A DNA stretch of 64,000 bases, taken from assembly GCA_016704465.1 (NCBI GenBank), contig JADJAD010000006.1, positions 380,021-444,020 on the forward strand, written 5' to 3'. This document shows positions 49,713 through 64,000 of this stretch, in pieces (position 1 is the first letter of the stretch; each line of letters begins with the position of its first letter). The notes under the pieces were generated by a model. That model saw only the letters and a program-made list of their open reading frames with translations, ran no database searches and was not told the DNA's origin. The stretch comes from Gemmatimonadota bacterium. GTDB taxonomy: Bacteria; Gemmatimonadota; Gemmatimonadetes; Gemmatimonadales; Gemmatimonadaceae. The position numbers were made by a program, and so were the translations under genes.

Positions 49713-51260
49713 TCAGGTCGCCGCCGCGGCCGCACTCCCGCGCCGCCGCTCCAACTCGACCCGCACGTCGTGCGCGCGCTCCTCCGTGATCGGATACGTC
49801 GCAATCGCCCAAATCGCGATCCCCGAGGTGAGGAATGGAATGAAGGCATCGCAGATACGCATGAGCACGATGGTCTGCGCGCTTTGCGCCCCCGCCAGCT
49901 CCACGCTGAAACCGGTCGCGTTCAACAGGAACCCACCCATCGCCAGCGCGGCCGCCATGCCGAGCTTCACGACCCACCAGAAGATCGAGCCGAACATCCC
50001 CTCGCGCCGCTGGTGCGTCTGCAGTTCATCCACGTCCACGACGTCGGCGATCATCGAACCCATGAGGGTGAACAGCCCGCCCAGGCCGAACGCGATCAGC
50101 GGGGCCGGCAGGAGGAGGAGCAGCGGATACTGCGGGTCGTAGCACAACCACTTGAGCGCATATCCCACCATCGACACGCCGGTGGACACATAGAAGGCCG
50201 TGCGCTTGCCGACGCGGGTGCTGAGCCACGTGATGAAGAAGATCACCAGGAAGGTGGAAGCCGCGCCTAACGTTCCCGAGTAGCCCGCATACTTCGCCCC
50301 CAGCTCCTGGTTGCCGCCGAACACGTAGTAGATGATCACGTAGAACTGGAACGACGAGATCATGATGAAGCCGTTGAACACCAGGAACGTCGCCGCGCAC
50401 AGCTTGATGAACGGCTTCGACTTGAGCGTCGTCCCGAATCCCTTCGAAAACTCGGCCAGGTTGCGGCGCATGGCCCCCCAGCGGCTCTCGACCCGCGCCT
50501 GCTGCTCGGCGGTGACCGCGGCGTGCTGAAAGCGCTCGAGCAGGAAGATCGCGGGCAGGATACCGATGGCGATCGTCATGATCCCGATGCCCACCGCCAG
50601 CCACCGCGCGCCCTCGACCTGTGTGGGATACCAGTCCTTGTTGGACATGATCCACAGGAACCACGGCGACACGAGGTACGCGAGCTGGCCGATGAAGTTC
50701 TGCACCCCCATGAGGCGGGTGCGCTCGTGATAGTCGGGGGTGAGCTCGTAGCCTAACGCGACCCACGGCGTGGCAAAGATGGTGTAGGCCAGGTAGAAGA
50801 TGATCGACCCGACCAGGAAGAACCAGAAGTAGAAGGTCTCGCTGCGGCCGAGCGGCAGCTGCCAGAGCAGCGCGTAGATGATCCCGGCCGCGATCGCACC
50901 AATGAAGATGTAGGGTCGGCGTCGCCCCCACCGCGAGCGCGTGTTGTCCGAGATGTACCCCATGAGGGGATCGGTGAGCGCGTCGGTGATGCGCGGTAGC
51001 GCGCCCAGTAGCCCGACGAGGGCCGGGTTCATCCCCAGCCCCAGGTTCAGCACGATGACCATGCCGCCAATGGCTGCTGCGAGCATGTTGTTGACGAACG
51101 CTCCCATGCCGTACGCGATCTTGCGCGGGAACGAGATACGGTCCTCGGGCGCGGTCTCGAAGTGGACGGCATGCTCCGCCGTCCGACCGATGCCGAGCTT
51201 CGCGTGCCAGGCGGCGACGGCGCGTTGCGCGAGTGTCCGGCGCGGGGTGCGCGCGCTCAT
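49713..51260 (-). CDS. MFS transporter, glycoside-pentoside-hexuronide (GPH):cation symporter type
   Basis: Inner part of track ORF 49713-51392. The start ATG 51260 overlaps the GH16 stop (ATGA). There are 12 TM-like segments. The motif LGALPRITDALTDPLMGYISDNTRSRWGRRRPY is typical of MelB/GPH. Confidence 0.85.
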   Translation of the reverse strand: MSARTPRRTLAQRAVAAWHAKLGIGRTAEHAVHFETAPEDRISFPRKIAYGMGAFVNNMLAAAIGGMVIVLNLGLGMNPALVGLLGALPRITDALTDPLMGYISDNTRSRWGRRRPYIFIGAIAAGIIYALLWQLPLGRSETFYFWFFLVGSIIFYLAYTIFATPWVALGYELTPDYHERTRLMGVQNFIGQLAYLVSPWFLWIMSNKDWYPTQVEGARWLAVGIGIMTIAIGILPAIFLLERFQHAAVTAEQQARVESRWGAMRRNLAEFSKGFGTTLKSKPFIKLCAATFLVFNGFIMISSFQFYVIIYYVFGGNQELGAKYAGYSGTLGAASTFLVIFFITWLSTRVGKRTAFYVSTGVSMVGYALKWLCYDPQYPLLLLLPAPLIAFGLGGLFTLMGSMIADVVDVDELQTHQRREGMFGSIFWWVVKLGMAAALAMGGFLLNATGFSVELAGAQSAQTIVLMRICDAFIPFLTSGIAIWAIATYPITEERAHDVRVELERRRGSAAAAAT

Positions 51261-56076: not shown

Positions 56077-59000
56077 CTACCGCCGCAACGCTTCCAGCGC
56101 CTCCCGCTCCTGCACCCAGTACGGCTTGGGGAAGGGGCGCGCACTCGGCCAGACGCGATCCAGCGTGGCCCCATCGAACAACTCGCCGTCCTTCATGACG
56201 TAGCGGATGTCGGTCGAATTGCGGATGTCGTCCAGCGGATTGGAGTTGAGCACGACGAGGTCGGCCAGCTTGCCCGCTTCCAGCGACCCCAGGTCCCGGC
56301 CGTAGCCGATGGTCTCGGCGCCGATGACTGTGGCAATGCGCAGCGCTTCCATCGGCGTCATGTCGCCGCTCTGCAGCATCCAGAGCTCCCAGTGCGCGGC
56401 GATCCCGTCCTGCTGGCCGTGCGACCCGAGTCCCGCGCGCCCACCCGCGCGCACGATGTCGCGCACGCCGCGGGCGATGGCTGGGAAGTTGTAGTCTTCC
56501 TCCACGATCATCGGCCGGCGGCGCGCCTGGCGGGTGAGCAGCTCGGTGGGCGTGAAGAAGGCCGCCTTGGCATCCTTGTCGAGGTCGATGCGTGCCCGCC
56601 AGTACGTGTCGCCGGCCGGCGCGCCGTAGGCGACGACGAGCGTCGGTGTGTAGGCAATGCGCGAGTCGGCCATGACCGTGATGACGTCCTTGTAGAGCGG
56701 GACGTGGCCGATGGAGTGCTCGAGCGCGGTGAAGCCGTCGATGGCCATGGTGATGTCGGCCTTGAGGTCGGCGGCCCCTTCGTTCGTCGCGCTGATCCCT
56801 TCGGCCATCGCCGCCTGCAGGATCCACTGCCGCTGGATGCGGCGCGGTTGCAGGTACTGCTTGAGCGAGTTGACCCCCTGCCCCTTGTAGCGACGCACCA
56901 CGTTCAGGGCGTCGTCGTAGGACTTGATCGGGGTGTTGTTGCTGGTGAGGGGGAAACCGGTGGCGTAGATGCGCGATCCGACCATTTCGCCGGCATCGAT
57001 CAGCTCCCCCCACGCCACGTTCCAGCGCGTCCCGCTCGGGTTGCGCGTGGTCGTCACGCCGTAGGCGAGGTTGGCGGCGATCGACCATTCCTGGTCGGGG
57101 GCCATCTCGCGTCCCGTCTTGGGGTGGGCGTGCACGTCCACGAGGCCGGGGATGATCGTCTTGCCGCTGACGTCGATCACTTGTGCACCTGACGGCGCGG
57201 CAATGCTGGGCCCCACCTGGGCGATCCGGTTGTTGGTGACGAGCACGTCGCCGCGCTCCAATACTTCCTCGCCCGTCATGGTCACGATGCGTGCGCCGCG
57301 CAGCAGCACGCTCCCCTGCGGCGTGGCGCGCGGCACCGAGAGCGCGATCGTCGAGCGCGAGACGCCCCAGGTTGCGCTGTCGGCTGAGGACATGACGCGA
57401 TCGGTGGCCGCCCGATAGTAGTGGTTGGCGAAACTCCAGGTGATCGTGCGTCCGCCATCGCCCCACTCCGCGTAGTTGGCGCCCTGTGTGGTGAGGCGGC
57501 GCAGGGGAACAGACGGCGAGGCGAAGTTGACGGCGAGCCCGTCACTGCCCGCATCGGCGAGCGGGAAGACATAGAGGTCGTCCCGATCGAGCACCATCAC
57601 GTGTCGGCCGTCTGGTGCAACTCGCGCCGAGATGCCGAGGGCCTGGTTGGTGGTGATCTTGGCGTGGGTGAGCTTGTCGGTTCCATCCAGGCGCACGGAG
57701 ACGAGCGCCGCGGTGGCCGAGGCGTTGAAGCCCGGGGTCGGATTGGGCACCGCCTCGGTGAAGAAGACGCGCGTTGGTCCGGCCGCCGCCGCAGAGACGC
57801 CCGCCGGCTCGGACGCTGCCGAGGTGATGCGGCTCGCGACGCCGCCAGCCGCCGGGACCCAGCGCAGCTCACCTAACGAGGCCACGGGACCACCGCCCAG
57901 CCCGGCCTGGCGCGGGGACCAGGCCACCACGATGCGGTCCCCCTCGGGCGACCAGCGCGGCGCGGTGATCCACGCCGGGTCGCGGGTCAGCTGCATCGGC
58001 GCCCCCGTCCCGTCGGCGCGCGCCTTCCACAGCGCCCCGCCCGACGAGTCTGACCATGTCACGTACGCCACCCACGCCCCGTCGGGCGACCAGGCCGGGA
58101 AGTATTCGCGTGCTGCTGCGCGCGTCAGCCGGCGCGGGGCCGCGATCGTGGCACCGTCGCGCGCGGCCAGCCAGAGCTTCCCGAGCGCCGAGAAGGCGAC
58201 TTGGCGGCCGTTCGGTGTCTCGCTCACCGATAGCAGCTGCGTAACCGGCAGTGGCGCGTCGCTCACCGAGAGCGGGACCGCGTGCCGCTTTGCCATCCCC
58301 AGCTCGACATTTGCCGAGAACGGGATGACGGCCACCGCGCGGGTGGCGAGGTCGACGCGCTTGATCTTGCCGCCGCCGTAGAAGACCACGGCGCGCGAGT
58401 CGGGGGTGAAGGCGTATCCCGGAAAGACATCGTTCGGGGCATATCCCTCCGAGTCGTCGCGCTGCGTCTCGCCGACCAGCCAGCGGTCCTCCTGCGTAGC
58501 CAGGTCGCGCACGCGGAGCGCCGTCCTGGTACCGGCACGCGTCGCGTAGACCAGCCACTTTCCGTCGCGCGACACGATGGGGCGCAACCCGCCCCCTGCG
58601 CCAGCGGTCATGGGCGTCTCGGTCCCGGTCTGCCGATCGAAGGCAATCACCTGGTAGGCACCGAGGTTCTCGCCCGTGTAGCCGCCGCCGTGCGACCCGA
58701 AGTAGAGCGTGCGCCCGTCGGGAGAAAAGGCCGCGCCGGTGTTGGTCGTCTTTCGGGTCGGCGCGGAGGGGAAGAGCTGCATCCCGCTCCCGCCATTCAC
58801 GTGGTACATCCACAGCGGCACGTTGGTCAGGTAGTTCTCGGCGCTGGGATACGGACCGAAGCGACGGGCGACGATATAGTTCCCGTCAGGAGTCCAGGCT
58901 GGGGAGGAGAGCGCGTTGTCGACTTCCTTGGTTATGCGGCGGGCCCCCGAACCATCGGCGCGGACGAGCCACAGGTTATCGCTGCCGTCCCGGTCGGAGA

Positions 59001-59346
59001 TGAAGGCGATGGTTTGGCCGTCGGGCGACCATCGCGGCATCGCATCCCACGCCATGCCGCTCGTCAGGCGCGTCGTCTGGCCGCCGGCGATCGGGATGGT
59101 GTACAGGTCGCCGAGCAGGTCGAAGACGATGCGCTGGCCATCGGGCGAGACGTCCACCGAGAGCCATGTCCCCTCGTCTGTGGTGAAGCGCAGCGTGCGT
59201 TCGGGCTGCAGGGGGAGCGCCACTACCGTGTCGGCCGGAACGGGGGTGGACTGCTGCGCCTGGAGTGGCAGCGCGATCGTGATGGCCAGCAGAAGACCGG
59301 TGCGGCGTGCAGCGTGGCGCGGCGCGGGGAGGCGGAGAGGAGTCAT
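56077..59346 (-). CDS. Secreted TolB-like beta-propeller(s) fused to a C-terminal amidohydrolase domain
   Basis: Inner part of the 1428-aa track ORF. ATG 59346 gives the signal MTPLRLPAPRHAARRTGLLLAITIALPLQA. Repeated WSPDG/SPDG propeller blades are present. The amidohydrolase part has IPGLVDVHAH and a C-terminal GSLEAGKLADLVVLNSNPL. Confidence 0.85.
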   Translation of the reverse strand: MTPLRLPAPRHAARRTGLLLAITIALPLQAQQSTPVPADTVVALPLQPERTLRFTTDEGTWLSVDVSPDGQRIVFDLLGDLYTIPIAGGQTTRLTSGMAWDAMPRWSPDGQTIAFISDRDGSDNLWLVRADGSGARRITKEVDNALSSPAWTPDGNYIVARRFGPYPSAENYLTNVPLWMYHVNGGSGMQLFPSAPTRKTTNTGAAFSPDGRTLYFGSHGGGYTGENLGAYQVIAFDRQTGTETPMTAGAGGGLRPIVSRDGKWLVYATRAGTRTALRVRDLATQEDRWLVGETQRDDSEGYAPNDVFPGYAFTPDSRAVVFYGGGKIKRVDLATRAVAVIPFSANVELGMAKRHAVPLSVSDAPLPVTQLLSVSETPNGRQVAFSALGKLWLAARDGATIAAPRRLTRAAAREYFPAWSPDGAWVAYVTWSDSSGGALWKARADGTGAPMQLTRDPAWITAPRWSPEGDRIVVAWSPRQAGLGGGPVASLGELRWVPAAGGVASRITSAASEPAGVSAAAAGPTRVFFTEAVPNPTPGFNASATAALVSVRLDGTDKLTHAKITTNQALGISARVAPDGRHVMVLDRDDLYVFPLADAGSDGLAVNFASPSVPLRRLTTQGANYAEWGDGGRTITWSFANHYYRAATDRVMSSADSATWGVSRSTIALSVPRATPQGSVLLRGARIVTMTGEEVLERGDVLVTNNRIAQVGPSIAAPSGAQVIDVSGKTIIPGLVDVHAHPKTGREMAPDQEWSIAANLAYGVTTTRNPSGTRWNVAWGELIDAGEMVGSRIYATGFPLTSNNTPIKSYDDALNVVRRYKGQGVNSLKQYLQPRRIQRQWILQAAMAEGISATNEGAADLKADITMAIDGFTALEHSIGHVPLYKDVITVMADSRIAYTPTLVVAYGAPAGDTYWRARIDLDKDAKAAFFTPTELLTRQARRRPMIVEEDYNFPAIARGVRDIVRAGGRAGLGSHGQQDGIAAHWELWMLQSGDMTPMEALRIATVIGAETIGYGRDLGSLEAGKLADLVVLNSNPLDDIRNSTDIRYVMKDGELFDGATLDRVWPSARPFPKPYWVQEREALEALRR

Positions 59347-59622
59347 GCGGTGATCCGTGGCGATTGACACGAGCGGCGGGTATGGCGGCAGGTCGCTCGG
59401 CGGCTGCGGCGACACCGGCGGGGTGGCGGGGCAGCATCGCGGGAGCGACTGCAGGACGGAGGTCGGGCGAAGATGCGGCGTGGCGCGGGGGGTCGCAACG
59501 CGCGTCCGCTGGCGCGGATGCGTCGTCGCGGACACGCGGGCCAGGGGTGACACCGCCACCTGCGTCTCGCCGTAAGGCGTACAGAATTGTATACTAATTA
59601 CCTGCCCCCATCCCCACATGCC

Positions 59623-61215
59623 ATGACGCACCGTTTCCACTCTCGTGCGAGCGCCATCGGCGCCCGGCTGGCCGCGCTCGCCCTCATTGGCGCGCTCGCC
59701 TCCCTCCTCGCCCCATCCGCCGCGACCGCGCAGCGCACGGACCGGCGCGCGACGCTCGCCGAGCTGGATCGCTACATCCCGAAGGCGCTGGCGGAATGGA
59801 ACGGCGCGGGCGTCGCTGTCGGGATCGTGGAGAACGACTCGCTGGTGTACGCGCGCGGCTTCGGCGTGCGCGAGGTGGGCAAGGCGGATCCGGTCGATGC
59901 CGCGACCGTCTTCGCCATCGGCTCCAATACCAAGTTCTTCACCGCCGTGGCCGCCGCGATGCTCGCCGACGATGGCGTGCTCTCGCTCGACGACCGGATC
60001 ACCCGGTTCCTGCCGCAGTTTCAGTTGTACGATCCGTGGGTCACCCGCGAGTTCACCCTGCGCGACGCCATGTCGCACCGAAGCGGGCTGGGACGGCGCG
60101 GCGACGCGTTGTGGCACGGCACGCCTCTGTCCCGCGACGAAATCGTGCGCCGCGTGCGCTACCTCGTGCCCAGCAGCTCCTTCCGCTCGGAGTACGGGTA
60201 CCAGAACATCATGTTCCTCACCGCCGGGCAGACGATCGCTGCGGCGGCGGGCAAGAGCTGGGACGACGTCATCCGTGACCGAATCTTCCAGCCGCTGGGC
60301 ATGGTCGCGTCCAACACCAGCGTCAAGCAGCTGGCGGGGCGCCCGAACGTCGCGTCGCCGCACAACCTCGCTCCCGGAGAAACGCGCCCGGTCCAGATTC
60401 CCTGGATGGACATCGACAACATCGCCCCGGCCGGCTCAATCAACTCCAACGTGCAGGACATGGCGCGGTGGATGCGATTCATCCTCGGCGGCGGCACCGC
60501 AGGAGGTCGTCAGCTCGTCAAGCAGTCCACGCTCGCCGACATCACCGGACCGCACAGCATCGCCACCCGCGTCGTCGCCGACACGCTCAACCCGACCCGA
60601 CACTTCTCGCTCTACGGCCTCGGCATCGGCATCTCGGACCTGCACGGCGTGAAGGTGCTGCAGCACACGGGCGGCATCGACGGGATGCTGTCGTTTGTGG
60701 CAATGGTACCGGAGCGCAACCTGGGCATCGTCGTGCTCACCAACGTGGCCGGGCACAATGCGCTGTATACCGCGGTTGGAAGCCGCATCCTCAACGACTT
60801 CCTCGGCGGTCCCACGCGCGACTGGAGCGCGATTGCCCTGCAACAGACGCGGCGCGCCGAGGAGGAGGCGGCGAAGCGCGCGCAGGCACGGTACGCCGCG
60901 CGGGTCGTGGATGCGAAGCCTTCGCGCGCGCTGGGGGAGTACGCCGGTATCTATCGGCACGAAATGTACGGCGACGCCACGATCACGCTCGAGGACGGGA
61001 CGTTGCGACTGCGATATCCCGCCGCCGTGGACGTACGGCTGCGGCACCTGCACTACGATACGTTCCTGGGGGGCGCGCCGAGCACCCCGCCGGACTCGCC
61101 AGATGGGGCGGTGGTGCGCTTTGCGCTCGACGCTCGGGGACGCGTGGCGTCGGTCGATGTAGAGGGCATTGCCGAGTTTGCTCGTGTGCGCGACACGGAG
61201 GCGGGCGCGCGTTGA
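59623..61215 (+). CDS. Beta-lactamase-fold serine hydrolase with C-terminal lipocalin-like extension
   Basis: Inner part of track ORF 59587-61215. A signal peptide is present. The SxxK motif is in FAIGSNTKFFTAVAAAML, and YQN is also present. Confidence 0.85.
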   Translation: MTHRFHSRASAIGARLAALALIGALASLLAPSAATAQRTDRRATLAELDRYIPKALAEWNGAGVAVGIVENDSLVYARGFGVREVGKADPVDAATVFAIGSNTKFFTAVAAAMLADDGVLSLDDRITRFLPQFQLYDPWVTREFTLRDAMSHRSGLGRRGDALWHGTPLSRDEIVRRVRYLVPSSSFRSEYGYQNIMFLTAGQTIAAAAGKSWDDVIRDRIFQPLGMVASNTSVKQLAGRPNVASPHNLAPGETRPVQIPWMDIDNIAPAGSINSNVQDMARWMRFILGGGTAGGRQLVKQSTLADITGPHSIATRVVADTLNPTRHFSLYGLGIGISDLHGVKVLQHTGGIDGMLSFVAMVPERNLGIVVLTNVAGHNALYTAVGSRILNDFLGGPTRDWSAIALQQTRRAEEEAAKRAQARYAARVVDAKPSRALGEYAGIYRHEMYGDATITLEDGTLRLRYPAAVDVRLRHLHYDTFLGGAPSTPPDSPDGAVVRFALDARGRVASVDVEGIAEFARVRDTEAGAR

Positions 61216-61268
61216 TTGAATCGGGGGCGCACCTTGCGCTGACCGCCACCCATGCGGACACTACGTAC

Positions 61269-61883
61269 ATGTCACTCCCTCTTCTCCGGCGCCCGCTGCT
61301 CGGCGCCCTCGCCGCCCTTACCCTGCTCGCCGTGCATCCCATCGGCGCCCAACAGCTCGGCCCCGTCGATGGGGCCGACCTCTCCCCGACCGACACCGGC
61401 CGCGTTCGCGCCGGGATGCTCGCCCCCGACTTCACCTTGGAGTCGTTCACCGGTGAGCGCATCAAGCTCTCCGACTATCGAGGCAAGAAGACGATCCTGC
61501 TCGCCTTCTATCGGGGGCATTGGTGACCCTACTGCGCCCGTCAGCTCGGTGAGCTGAGAGCCCTGTTGTCCCCCGCGCAGCGCGCGAACACCGAGATCCT
61601 CGCGGTGTCGATCGACGATCGTGCCAAGATCCAGCTCATGCTGGACCGCGTCGCCAAGGAGTACGGACCGCCCGCGCCCGACTTCACCTTCCTGTCAGAC
61701 CCAGGGCACCGAGTCATTGACCGGTACGGCCTGAAGAACGAGGGCAACCCGAACGGGATCCCGCATCCCACGGTTTACGTGATCGACAAGAAGGGGATGG
61801 TGCGCTGGAAGTTCACCGAGGTGAACTACAAGATCCGTCCCACGAACGAGATGATCCTCAAGGCGCTGGGTGAGGTGCAGTAG
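61269..61883 (+). CDS. Secreted AhpC/TSA (PRX-like) thiol-disulfide oxidoreductase with in-frame TGA at the first redox Cys position (candidate selenoprotein, codon 86)
   Basis: Track ORFs ending at 61526 and starting at 61566 are in the same frame. Read through TGA 61524-61526, the sequence is ...KTILLAFYRGHW-U-PYCARQLGELRALLSPAQRANTEILAVSIDD...PHPTVYVIDKKGMVRW. Family consensus here is FYRGxWCPxC. Confidence 0.6.
61541..61557 (+). other. Hairpin UCAGCUC-GGU-GAGCUGA 15-33 nt downstream of the in-frame UGA (bacterial SECIS candidate)
   Basis: A 7-bp stem with a G-starting apical loop. A possible lower stem is CUGCGC (61532-61537) with GCGCAG (about 61575-61580). Confidence 0.4.
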
Positions 61884-61989
61884 GGAGACTGCTGCGCATC
61901 GCCCTGCGGCGTGAACGACAGAGGCCGGCGTCGGGAATCCACCCCCGCGCCGGCCTCGTCGTGTCGCTGCCTGCGTTCACTGCGCCTGC

Positions 61990-63935
61990 TTAGCGCCCTC
62001 CCGCCGCGCCGTCGGCGCGCGTGACACCGGATCCCATCCCCTTGAGGTGCTGGTCGAAGTAGGCGACGATGTCCTGGTACATCTGCATCGTGTTCTCGCG
62101 CCGGCGCACGTAGTAATTCTCGTTGGGGTAGGTCTTGAGCACGAACGGCTTGTAGTTCATCTCCAGCCGGTCGGCGAAGATGCGCAGGCTTCCGAGCGCG
62201 GGAGCGCGGCGCCCACGCCGTGCAGCAGCATCAGCGGCGTCTGGATGTCGGTGATGTTGAAGATCGGCGACGACGCCTTGTACTTCGCCTCGTTGGTGGC
62301 CAGCGGGCCGAACTCGTACTCGAGGAGCTTGAGGTGGCGCAGCTCCTGCTCCTGGATCATGTGGATCCAGTCGCCGTAGCCCGAGACCGAGACGCCAGCC
62401 TGGAAGACGCCCGGCGCAAAGGCCGCGGCGGCCAGCGTCATGCAGCCGCCGTAGCTGGTGCCGGTGATCCCCATGTGCTGGCCGTCGACGTACGGCAGCG
62501 TGCGCAGGTACTCCACCCCCGCCGTCACGTCCACGAGGTCACAGCGCCCCCAGCACCCATTGTTCGCGTCCTCGAACACTTTCCCGTATCCGGAGCTCCC
62601 CCTGATGTTAGGCAGCAGGACCGCGTAGCCGCGCATGGCGAGGTACTGCACCTCGGACTGGTACGTGTCGTTGAACGACGAGGTCGGACCGCCGTGGATA
62701 TACAGGATGCCCGGGGCCTTCTTCCCGGCTGGCAGCACCGGCTCGTACAGGTAGGCACTGACGGTGAAGCCGTCGGGGGTCTTGTAGCTGATCTTCTTCG
62801 GCCGGATGAGCGCATTGCTGATGTAGGTCGGACCGGCCGACTGCGTGAGGCGGCGGGGACTTCCGCCGGCGGCCGGCACCACGTACAGGTCGGCCGGATC
62901 GACCGGTGTCTGCATGGTGTAGGCGATGCGCGTGCCGTCGGGGGACCACTGCGCGTTGGAGACCATCCCCACGGCTCCGGGCGACGCGACGACCCGCGGC
63001 GCGCCTCCGGTCACACCAACGACCCGCACGTCCTGCATCCCGTTCCACAGCGCCGCGTACAGGATCGATTTTCCGTCTGGCGACCAGCTGGCGTCGCTCT
63101 GGTTCGCGGCCTCGGCCGCCACCTGGCGGGGCGTGCCGCCCCCCATGGGGACGGTCCAGTAGTTGACCCAGCCGCTGCGATGTGACCGGAAGAGCAGCGT
63201 GGAGCCATCGGGCGAAACGCGCGGATAGCCGAAGTTTCCGCCGGCCTGGTAGTCGAAGAAGTCGGTGTCGCTGACGATCACCCGCGGCGTGCCGCGCCCG
63301 CCGGCGTCGAGCTCCAGCACGTCATGGTCGAGCCACTTCTCGTCCATGCGCGCGTAGACGACCTTGGCACCGTCGGGCGTCCACGTCGGGAAGACTTCGT
63401 AGCGCTGGTCGGTCGTCAGTCGCTCGGCCGCACCGCTGGCCACATCGGCGATCCAGACGTCATAGCTCCCGTACTTGTCGCCGGCGAGCGCGAGCCGACG
63501 CCCGTCGGGCGACCAGGAGTACGAGTTGATGCGCCCCCCGAGCCGAGTGACCTGGCGCTCGCGCCCGTCCACCAGCGACCTGACGAACAGCTCGGCGGAT
63601 GCGCCGGCTGCAGAGATGTAGGCCAGGTGCGTGCCGTCGGGCGAATACTGCGGCTGGTGGGCCTGCAGGAAGGCGATCTCGCCCATGCGGATGTTGAGCG
63701 ACTCGGGGAAGCCGCCATCGGCGGGGATCGTCCACAGGTCGGAACCGCCGAGGGATCCTCCGATGAGGAGTTTGCGGCCGTCGGGCGCCCACTGCACCAC
63801 CCCCCCGACGACCGACCGGATCGACGTGACTTCCTCGGCGCTCAGGACCTGACGAGCACCCGACGGCTGGGCGTTTGACGATGCGGCAGCCGCCGGCAGA
63901 AGGGCGACGACGAGCAGGTGACGCGTGAGGCGCAT
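61990..63935 (-). CDS. S9-family serine peptidase with N-terminal TolB-like propeller; frame broken once near 62185-62215
   Basis: Track ORF 62157-63935. The signal is MRLTRHLLVVALLPAAAA. There are multiple WSPDG blades. The nucleophile is GITGTSYGG. After ...TPLMLLHG the family C-terminus continues in another frame (LRIFADRLEMNYKPFVLKTYPNE...VAYFDQHLKG) to TAA 61990-61992. Confidence 0.7.
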
Positions 63936-64000
63936 GGCACTTCTCCGGATGAATGGTTCGGCGGCCTGCGGGCAGCCACAGGAGCCAACTTATCGACGGG

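Follow-up and report, generated by a model that had tools for sequence, protein, structure and literature searches.

A stretch of 64,000 nucleotides from a Gemmatimonadota bacterium (contig JADJAD010000006.1, positions 380,021 to 444,020; the window in what follows) carries near its end a gene of the AhpC/TSA type that is interrupted by a single in-frame TGA codon. The gene occupies positions 61269-61883 of the plus strand as one frame of 204 codons, from an ATG start to a TAG stop at 61881-61883, and the TGA at 61524-61526, in the context ...LAFYRGHW-TGA-PYCARQLGELR..., is its only internal stop. When a cysteine is put at the stop, the translation scores 102.1 bits against the Pfam family AhpC-TSA (PF00578; E 2.7e-29, cut-off 26) and 75.6 bits against Redoxin. 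An earlier reading of the bare sequence (the original prediction) had described an AhpC/TSA-type protein with one TGA at this position and a frame running on to 61883, and translation and Pfam confirm the description throughout. The JGI, ENA and NCBI records call two open reading frames (ORFs) for the gene, the second beginning at a TTG, and the JGI gene calls cut the identical gene into pieces of 85 and 105 aa. In support of that prediction, we conclude that the UGA very probably encodes selenocysteine (Sec) in an exported peroxiredoxin-like (Prx-like) protein. The features of the gene are the following, SECIS standing for selenocysteine insertion sequence:

61269-61883, plus strand: probable selenoprotein coding sequence, 204 codons including Sec86 (translation, Pfam, 17-sequence alignment)
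61269-61349, plus strand: predicted signal peptide, residues 1-27, MSLPLLRRPLLGALAALTLLAVHPIGA with the cut before QQ (hydropathy, alignment consensus)
61524-61526, plus strand: in-frame UGA, the probable Sec codon (U86), which opens the redox motif U-P-Y-C (conserved column)
61533-61535, plus strand: TGC for Cys89, the putative resolving partner in UxxC, aligned to the peroxidatic Cys of true peroxiredoxins
61541-61557, plus strand: candidate SECIS, stem 61541-61547 with 61551-61557, loop GGU 61548-61550, codons R-Q-L-G-E-L-R
61758-61769, plus strand: I-P-H-P loop, residues 164-167 (alignment; HMMER alignment to 2ywn)

Conservation of the TGA column and of the frame beyond it

Full-length homologues were sought in a collection of 5.8 billion protein sequences, from which the best 120 matches were listed. 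We aligned 16 of these homologues, 'peroxiredoxin family proteins' of Gemmatimonadota type with identities no higher than 59%, with the present gene to give a 17-sequence alignment. All 16 have a cysteine in the TGA column, the first Cys of FYRGxWCPxC. A count of the motif over the 120 listed homologues gives Cys in 112 of the 116 that fit the pattern, the other four being scored as W. No full-length Sec form is present among the protein-database matches listed, where the best full-length sequences are Cys forms with identities up to 59%.

Nucleotide data give a different composition. A scan of GTDB at one genome per species returned 76 loci, and 61 of them have TGA at exactly this column: 50 in Gemmatimonadota, including Longimicrobiales, and 11 in Acidobacteriota (Bryobacterales, Terriglobia), with phyla assigned from record titles. 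The TGA loci include the closest relatives of the gene, at 78-85% identity; the protein database lacks these, presumably as a result of their being split by gene callers. In six loci of the scan that are more distant, the column has TGC or TGT. A further 54 metagenome genes carry TGA at the column, so that the two sources together hold 116 TGA-form genes, the window counted, and 31 more distant Cys-form loci (TGC/TGT). The expectation of the original prediction that homologues would have Cys at this column is therefore borne out, with TGA taking its place in the closer relatives.

The frame beyond the TGA is as well kept as the frame before it. In 115 of the 116 TGA-form genes it runs on without a stop for 115-127 codons, and in the remaining one for 88, against ~119 codons in the Cys forms; none of the 116 has another internal stop. 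Pairwise nucleotide differences at codon positions 1, 2 and 3 amount to 0.37, 0.29 and 0.56 downstream of the UGA and to 0.29, 0.24 and 0.59 upstream. This third-position bias on both sides indicates that purifying selection acts alike on the protein encoded by either half. From the UGA to the TTG called as a start there are 13 codons, and they include P87, C89, Q92 and L93, all invariant in the 17-sequence alignment.

In a rough neighbour-joining tree that combines 115 Sec forms with 142 Cys forms, the two states fall mostly into large pure clades (Sec clades of 49, 38 and 12 sequences; a Cys clade of 105), with at least seven changes between the Sec and Cys states. This pattern is consistent with the interconversion of Sec and Cys described for bacterial selenoproteins in the abstract of PMC1794560.

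A covarying hairpin after the UGA

The hairpin UCAGCUC-GGU-GAGCUGA lies at 61541-61557, separated from the UGA by 14 nt so that its first base is the 15th nucleotide, exactly where the original prediction had placed a 7-bp stem with a GGU loop. Folded alone, the 17-nt element has a free energy of -8.6 kcal/mol. The published model of the bacterial SECIS (bSECIS) describes a loop of 3-9 nt, a stem of 4-16 bp, a G among the first two nucleotides of the loop, typically as G[G/U], a distance of 16-37 nt between UGA and loop, and a minimum free energy (MFE) of at most -7.5 kcal/mol (PMC13188914). The present hairpin, with its GGU loop, 7-bp stem, 21-nt spacing and energy of -8.6 kcal/mol, falls within every one of these bounds, and it covaries among relatives as described below; the bSECIS check that had been proposed for it thus came out in its favour on both counts. 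A hairpin of 7 bp or more that agrees with the SECIS rules on loop and spacing follows only 16 of the 1477 TGA triplets in the window (1.1%). Rfam reports no RNA family in the window, and no match for bacterial SECIS, a result that says nothing about the hairpin either way.

For comparison between genes, the 48 nt from the UGA onwards were aligned without gaps in 62 genes. The hairpin occurs in the same register in all 62. Standard pairs fill 96.1% of the pair cells, a level reached by none of 500 shuffles, as against 30-49% in controls slid along the alignment. Two of the pairs covary. At 21-31, 54 genes have G-C and eight have A-U; no gene has a mismatch there, and the change is silent in both codons (CAG or CAA for Gln, CUG or UUG for Leu). 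At 18-34, U-A (31 genes) alternates with G-C (23 genes). The coupling at 21-31 can be followed over all 116 genes: CAG goes with CUG in 101 and CAA with UUG in 13, the mixed combinations CAG/UUG and CAA/CUG never occur, and in the last two genes CAG faces a codon that does not pair with it (UUC or CUC). As judged from these alignments, the comparative evidence for the hairpin is far beyond chance.

The hairpin also separates the Sec forms from the Cys forms. Among genes encoding Q-L-x-E-L, all six core pairs are present in 90 of 95 Sec forms versus one of 14 Cys forms, and the first Leu of the motif is CUC in 90 of the 95 Sec forms, while CUC makes up 32% of the Leu codons elsewhere in the same genes. 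An MFE of -7.5 kcal/mol or lower for the 17-nt hairpin is reached by 97 of 116 Sec forms and by none of 31 Cys forms. In all 116 TGA forms the apical loop begins with G, and in 115 of them G or U comes second, which restricts the encoded residue to Gly or Val: Gly is found in 93 Sec forms and Val in 22, whereas the Cys forms mostly have Lys, Thr, Ser, Ala or Arg. These frequencies point to an RNA signal that visibly shapes the protein sequence at the loop of the hairpin.

The arrangement shares with the fdhF-type SECIS/SelB system of Escherichia coli a hairpin that lies within the coding sequence directly after the UGA, and a small loop that starts with G followed by G or U. It differs in being minimal, with a 7-bp stem, a 3-nt loop and no bulged U. 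The metagenome contigs L098 and L099 each bear two paralogues of the Prx-like gene in Sec form, and one of the L098 copies (TGA followed by PYCNRQLADFQSHI) has no in-register hairpin, with four of seven pairs and -0.4 kcal/mol; this copy may have its SECIS in another register, or may itself be decaying.

Selenocysteine machinery in the lineage

The E. coli proteins SelA, SelB and SelD (from NC_000913) were used as tBLASTn queries against the window and all 165 related loci. Of the three, selD alone gave matches in the loci, namely in L027, L047 and L159-L164 and, weakly, in L144. The gene itself has an in-frame TGA, within G-A-G-TGA-A-C-K, at 5732-5734 of L027, 5789-5791 of L047, 6391-6393 of L160 and 9983-9985 of L162. 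E. coli SelD has Cys17 at this position, and the Sec-type SelD proteins have their Sec there. An 8-bp hairpin with a GUU triloop follows 33 nt after the selD UGA. Since a compact hairpin is common to the UGA of selD and that of the Prx-like gene, the 7-8 bp stems with G[G/U]U triloops suggest a form of SECIS typical of the lineage. The 120 SelD homologues listed by a protein search are mostly shortened at the N-terminus (325-326 aa, ~90% query coverage), which fits a start called after the UGA, and NCBI names some of them Gemmatimonadetes or Gemmatimonadota SelD.

The two UGA-containing genes are also neighbours in some genomes. In L027 (Longimicrobiales) and L047 (Gemmatimonadales) the Prx-like gene is followed ~2 kb downstream by selD, and three further contigs have a split AhpC-TSA gene 2.3 kb from selD. 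On several contigs a GCV_T-like gene and a transglutaminase/TPR gene are situated between selD and the Prx-like gene.

For the Acidobacteriota carriers, PMC5029168 lists SelD, SelA and SelB in Candidatus Solibacter usitatus (Bryobacterales) and Candidatus Koribacter versatilis (Table S1), together with eight known selenoproteins in the former and 11 in the latter (Table S2). We found no published report of selenoproteins in Gemmatimonadota, the supplementary table of PMC5029168 having been covered in part.

Several observations weigh against Sec decoding. The 64-kb window holds no selA, selB, selD or tRNA-Sec by tBLASTn, Rfam and ARAGORN, and no tRNA gene at all, and the same four are lacking from the ~8 kb by which a related contig, Ga0138256_10003403 (see below), extends beyond the window. 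selA and selB are absent from the ~0.8 Mb of related DNA examined, and the Gemmatimonadota selD contigs, taken with 10-kb flanks, have no selA or selB neighbours. The 86-nt region of the hairpin folds no better than its dinucleotide shuffles (z = -0.07), in a sequence of 66.6% GC; single-sequence folding is uninformative here, because any sequence folds well at this GC content. The Sec-type selD of related Gemmatimonadota gives indirect support for Sec decoding in the lineage, and such doubt as remains arises because SelB, SelA and tRNA-Sec are components that we infer in this genome.

Export, fold and class of the protein

The N-terminus of the protein has a hydropathy peak of 2.0-2.5 over residues 9-23, preceded by RR and followed by an end of small residues, IGA, before QQ. 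In the alignment consensus, the N-terminal region ends in Ala-Gln directly before the conserved LGPVDG. Both features suggest a signal peptide of the general secretory (Sec pathway) type and export to the periplasm. The AlphaFold model (pLDDT 81.7, pTM 0.77) has a thioredoxin/peroxiredoxin fold with U86 directly before a helix of residues 88-99. Foldseek matches in the PDB comprise the 1-Cys peroxiredoxin AhpE, PrxQ/BCP and ResA, with TM-scores of 0.76-0.85 on the target (0.76-0.81 for the ResA structures). By sequence, the best match in the PDB is 3hdc (E 6.6e-15), a 'thioredoxin family protein' of Geobacter that has WCPYC; PrxQ and ResA come next.

The active site departs from that of canonical peroxiredoxins. 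In the HMMER alignment to the PrxQ structure 2ywn, the peroxiredoxin Pro, Thr, peroxidatic Cys and Arg correspond to R82, U86, C89 and P167, so that neither PxxxTxxC nor the catalytic Arg is present. C89 is invariant in the 17-sequence alignment, as are P165, H166 and P167, the last of which is likely the cis-Pro of thioredoxin-type proteins. Features of the ResA/TlpA type are found instead: a thioredoxin fold, W-U-P-Y-C at the N-terminus of helix alpha1, and an export signal predicted from hydropathy only. No NCBIfam model reached its cut-off for the protein, the scores being 41.8 bits for PrxU (NF040737, cut-off 270), 43.2 for the SelL-related redox protein (NF040769, cut-off 120), 29.8 for the WAxxUGC protein (NF041054, cut-off 300), 55.8 for ResA (NF002854, cut-off 170) and 30.2 for TlpA (NF047696, cut-off 230). 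By these comparisons the protein appears to resemble the ResA/TlpA family in its working, but not to be an equivalog. It has in common with ResA/TlpA/CcmG-type proteins (PDB 1st9, 1jfu; also 3hdc) an exported or anchored thioredoxin fold, W-C-x-x-C and a Pro loop before the beta3-beta4 hairpin, and differs from them in having Sec for the N-terminal Cys and in lacking linkage to cytochrome c maturation and CcdA/DsbD genes. With PrxU (TxxU), AhpE and PrxQ/BCP it shares the AhpC/TSA fold, and PrxU is likewise a selenoprotein; however, the Sec of PrxU is peroxidatic, whereas here the Sec stands at the Thr position of peroxiredoxins and Cys89 at the peroxidatic one. All this describes a protein that, on fold and motif, is 'Prx-like' with a thioredoxin-type redox motif rather than a canonical peroxiredoxin.

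With PF00578 above its cut-off, W-U-P-Y-C, and U86 at the peroxiredoxin Thr position, the protein belongs by domain and motif definition to the Prx-like (UxxC, PF00578) class, known since 2004-2005. The original prediction had called Cys/Sec pairs in PRX-like proteins an established class, and the literature documents it as such: the family was defined by UxxC in a PF00578 protein (PMC1088965), appears as 'Prx-like 1, pfam00578, UxxC' (PMC2398784), and is listed as 'Prx-like thiol:disulfide oxidoreductase, PF00578, UxxC', predicted with high confidence, of unknown function and with WP_010940744.1 as exemplar (PMC13188914). The members known from the work of Kryukov and Gladyshev and of Zhang et al. 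are likewise predicted rather than biochemically characterised. They share with the present clade the PF00578 domain, UxxC in place of the TxxU of Sec-peroxiredoxins, Cys homologues and a small SECIS with G in the loop. The clade differs from them in its occurrence in Gemmatimonadota and Acidobacteriota, its predicted signal peptide and the lack of an NCBIfam model at cut-off.

On this evidence the protein is most likely an exported thioredoxin-like selenol/thiol oxidoreductase. The competing view of its function is a genuine peroxidase, resembling glutathione peroxidase or PrxU, in which Sec86 would react with peroxides and Cys89 would resolve. Selenols react fast with peroxides and need no activating residues such as the Thr and Arg of peroxiredoxins; AhpE and PrxQ/BCP are moreover among the best structural matches, and both NCBI and JGI call the Cys homologues 'peroxiredoxin family protein'. 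We nevertheless regard a peroxidase as the less likely function, if one to be taken seriously, given the substitutions at all three of the Pro, Thr and Arg positions, the W-[C/U]-P-x-C motif with Pro at the cis-Pro loop position, which is the thioredoxin/ResA/TlpA signature, the PrxU score far under its cut-off, and the listing of the class as a thiol:disulfide oxidoreductase of unknown function (PMC13188914). No neighbour gene is conserved around 114 Sec-form loci, none recurring at more than 20 loci apart from the gene's own halves. With no conserved neighbour to indicate a partner or substrate, the biochemical role suggested for the oxidoreductase comes from motif and fold, and its substrate and direction of electron flow are likewise surmised.

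Alternative explanations of the TGA

If the UGA were a true stop, the locus would be a pseudogene, or two genes with an N-terminal product of 85 aa and a C-terminal one of 105 aa. The gene callers behind the JGI, ENA and NCBI records take it so, and the lack of Sec machinery in the window agrees with them. However, the UGA sits exactly at the column of the catalytic Cys, and in the structure model neither half makes a complete thioredoxin fold. A pseudogene would not stay open and under purifying selection in 116 lineages of two phyla, nor would a real stop select a covarying hairpin that is confined to the TGA forms. The 13 codons after the UGA, with their coding-type conservation and four invariant residues, lie ahead of the called TTG and exclude both the pseudogene and the two-gene model; a real stop with two separate genes in close homologues, which the original prediction had named as the result that would overturn it, is refuted by these codons and the open frame. 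We therefore consider a true stop very improbable.

To a reading of the UGA as Trp, Gly or Cys, by readthrough or reassignment, we assign a similarly slight chance. A termination codon UGA followed by C is a leaky context in E. coli, and C follows the UGA in 110 of the 116 genes. UGA is, however, an ordinary stop here: the 542-aa gene upstream ends with a TGA at 61213-61215, in agreement with the JGI call. Since UGA is otherwise a stop, the recoding must be local. The aligned residue is a redox Cys that only Sec can replace functionally, the downstream hairpin fits the SECIS model for SelB, and a Sec-type selD is present in the lineage. A scan of the window for TGA codons with coding sequence on both sides gave a single other hit, judged non-coding, at 50527 on the plus strand; it is the sole other TGA with more than 40 open codons and high third-position GC on either side, and its peptide (TRACCSAVTAAC-TGA-KRSS), from which alone it was judged, looks like an off-frame or antisense reading.

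The base itself was compared with an independent record. The ~12-kb JGI contig Ga0138256_10003403 (sample 3300012533), taken from the metagenome scan, is 99.27% identical to positions 59053-64000 of the window. It differs by 35 single-nucleotide polymorphisms (SNPs) and one indel, and is therefore a separately assembled, closely related strain. The contig has the same TGA, and within the selenoprotein gene there is one difference only, at 61697, a third codon position. A sequencing or assembly error, with TGC or TGT as the true codon and the A at 61526 an artefact, is scarcely credible: the window does have at least one indel-type defect (at about 62186, in the S9 peptidase gene), but this contig, 35 SNPs away, and 115 homologues from other species and samples carry the TGA, and the known defect is an indel and not a substitution, just as the original prediction had remarked that indel errors elsewhere do not explain a change from TGC to TGA.

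Proposed course of decoding and catalysis

Under Sec decoding, the steps of recoding would follow the established bacterial pathway. With the UGA in the ribosomal A site, the 7-bp hairpin with its GGU loop, 14 nt downstream, would sit at the mRNA entrance. Its loop would recruit SelB-GTP-Sec-tRNA(Sec), which would outcompete release factor 2, and Sec would be inserted. The product would then be exported by the secretory pathway and its signal peptide cleaved. In the mature protein, W-U-P-Y-C at the N-terminus of helix alpha1 would form a selenol/thiol redox pair, Sec86 acting as the attacking nucleophile and Cys89 resolving with formation of a selenosulfide. Like proteins of the ResA/TlpA type, it would probably serve in the cell envelope to reduce disulfides or other oxidised forms of sulfur or selenium.

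Genomic neighbourhood

The selenoprotein gene looks monocistronic. Downstream of it, before a convergent S9 peptidase gene, is the following element:

61915-61962, no strand assigned: GC-rich hairpin, probable transcription terminator without a U-tract (RNA fold)

The element is a very stable, GC-rich inverted repeat (ACGACAGAGGCCGGCG...CGCCGGCCTCGTCGT), and the 107 nt of 61884-61990 around it fold with -61.7 kcal/mol. A scan of 61000-62100 for consensus promoters and terminators called nothing, 61915-61962 included, the repeat being missed because it has no U-tract.

The S9 peptidase (prolyl-oligopeptidase) gene, on the minus strand, is frameshifted near its C-terminus in the window (ORFs 62157-63935 and 61990-62160) and intact, with 648 aa, in Ga0138256_10003403. 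The frameshift comes from one G that the window lacks at about 62186, the sole indel between the two sequences, and is probably an assembly error in the window, or else marks a strain-specific pseudogene.

Upstream, the selenoprotein gene is separated from an amidohydrolase gene by a serine hydrolase gene of 542 aa (59587-61215, plus strand; Beta-lactamase and DUF3471 in the JGI annotation). The closest species (L001-L003) match the window at the nucleotide level over 56.5-59.26 kb and again over 61.3-61.9 kb, but not over 59.26-61.29 kb, so the hydrolase gene looks like a lineage-specific insertion. On the minus strand, the mechanically called ORF of 1428 aa at 56077-60363 is an artefact of high GC, its N-terminal extension overlapping the plus-strand hydrolase gene; the real gene within it, with TolB/WD40-like repeats and an amidohydrolase domain, probably starts near MTPLRLPAP...

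Significance

The gene brings no new mechanism and no new class of selenoprotein: decoding is by the standard bacterial mechanism, and the protein is a new member, possibly of a new subfamily, of a known class. Whether the clade amounts to such a subfamily, one of exported Sec-containing Prx-like oxidoreductases so far uncatalogued, characteristic of Gemmatimonadota and shared with Bryobacterales/Terriglobia, in at least 61 GTDB species, and marked by a compact SECIS, linkage to selD and mis-annotation, is a proposal that we make tentatively, at slightly less than even weight. If it is true, the subfamily would be characterised by a SECIS of 7-bp stem and G[G/U]N triloop that dictates Q-L-[G/V]-E-L, and by systematic mis-annotation as two ORFs in public databases, and the linkage to a Sec-type selD in one subclade of Gemmatimonadota would hint at a dedicated selenium or redox function in the cell envelope.

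For annotation, the finding puts right a systematic error, the JGI, ENA and NCBI records splitting the gene into 'AhpC/TSA' fragments of 85 and 105 aa. It also offers an unusually clean example of how an RNA signal within a coding sequence limits the codons used and, at the loop, even the residue encoded (Gly or Val). Gemmatimonadota are an abundant phylum of soils and sediments with few cultured members, and the present gene adds to the evidence that many of them decode UGA as Sec and have at least two selenoproteins, the Prx-like protein and SelD.

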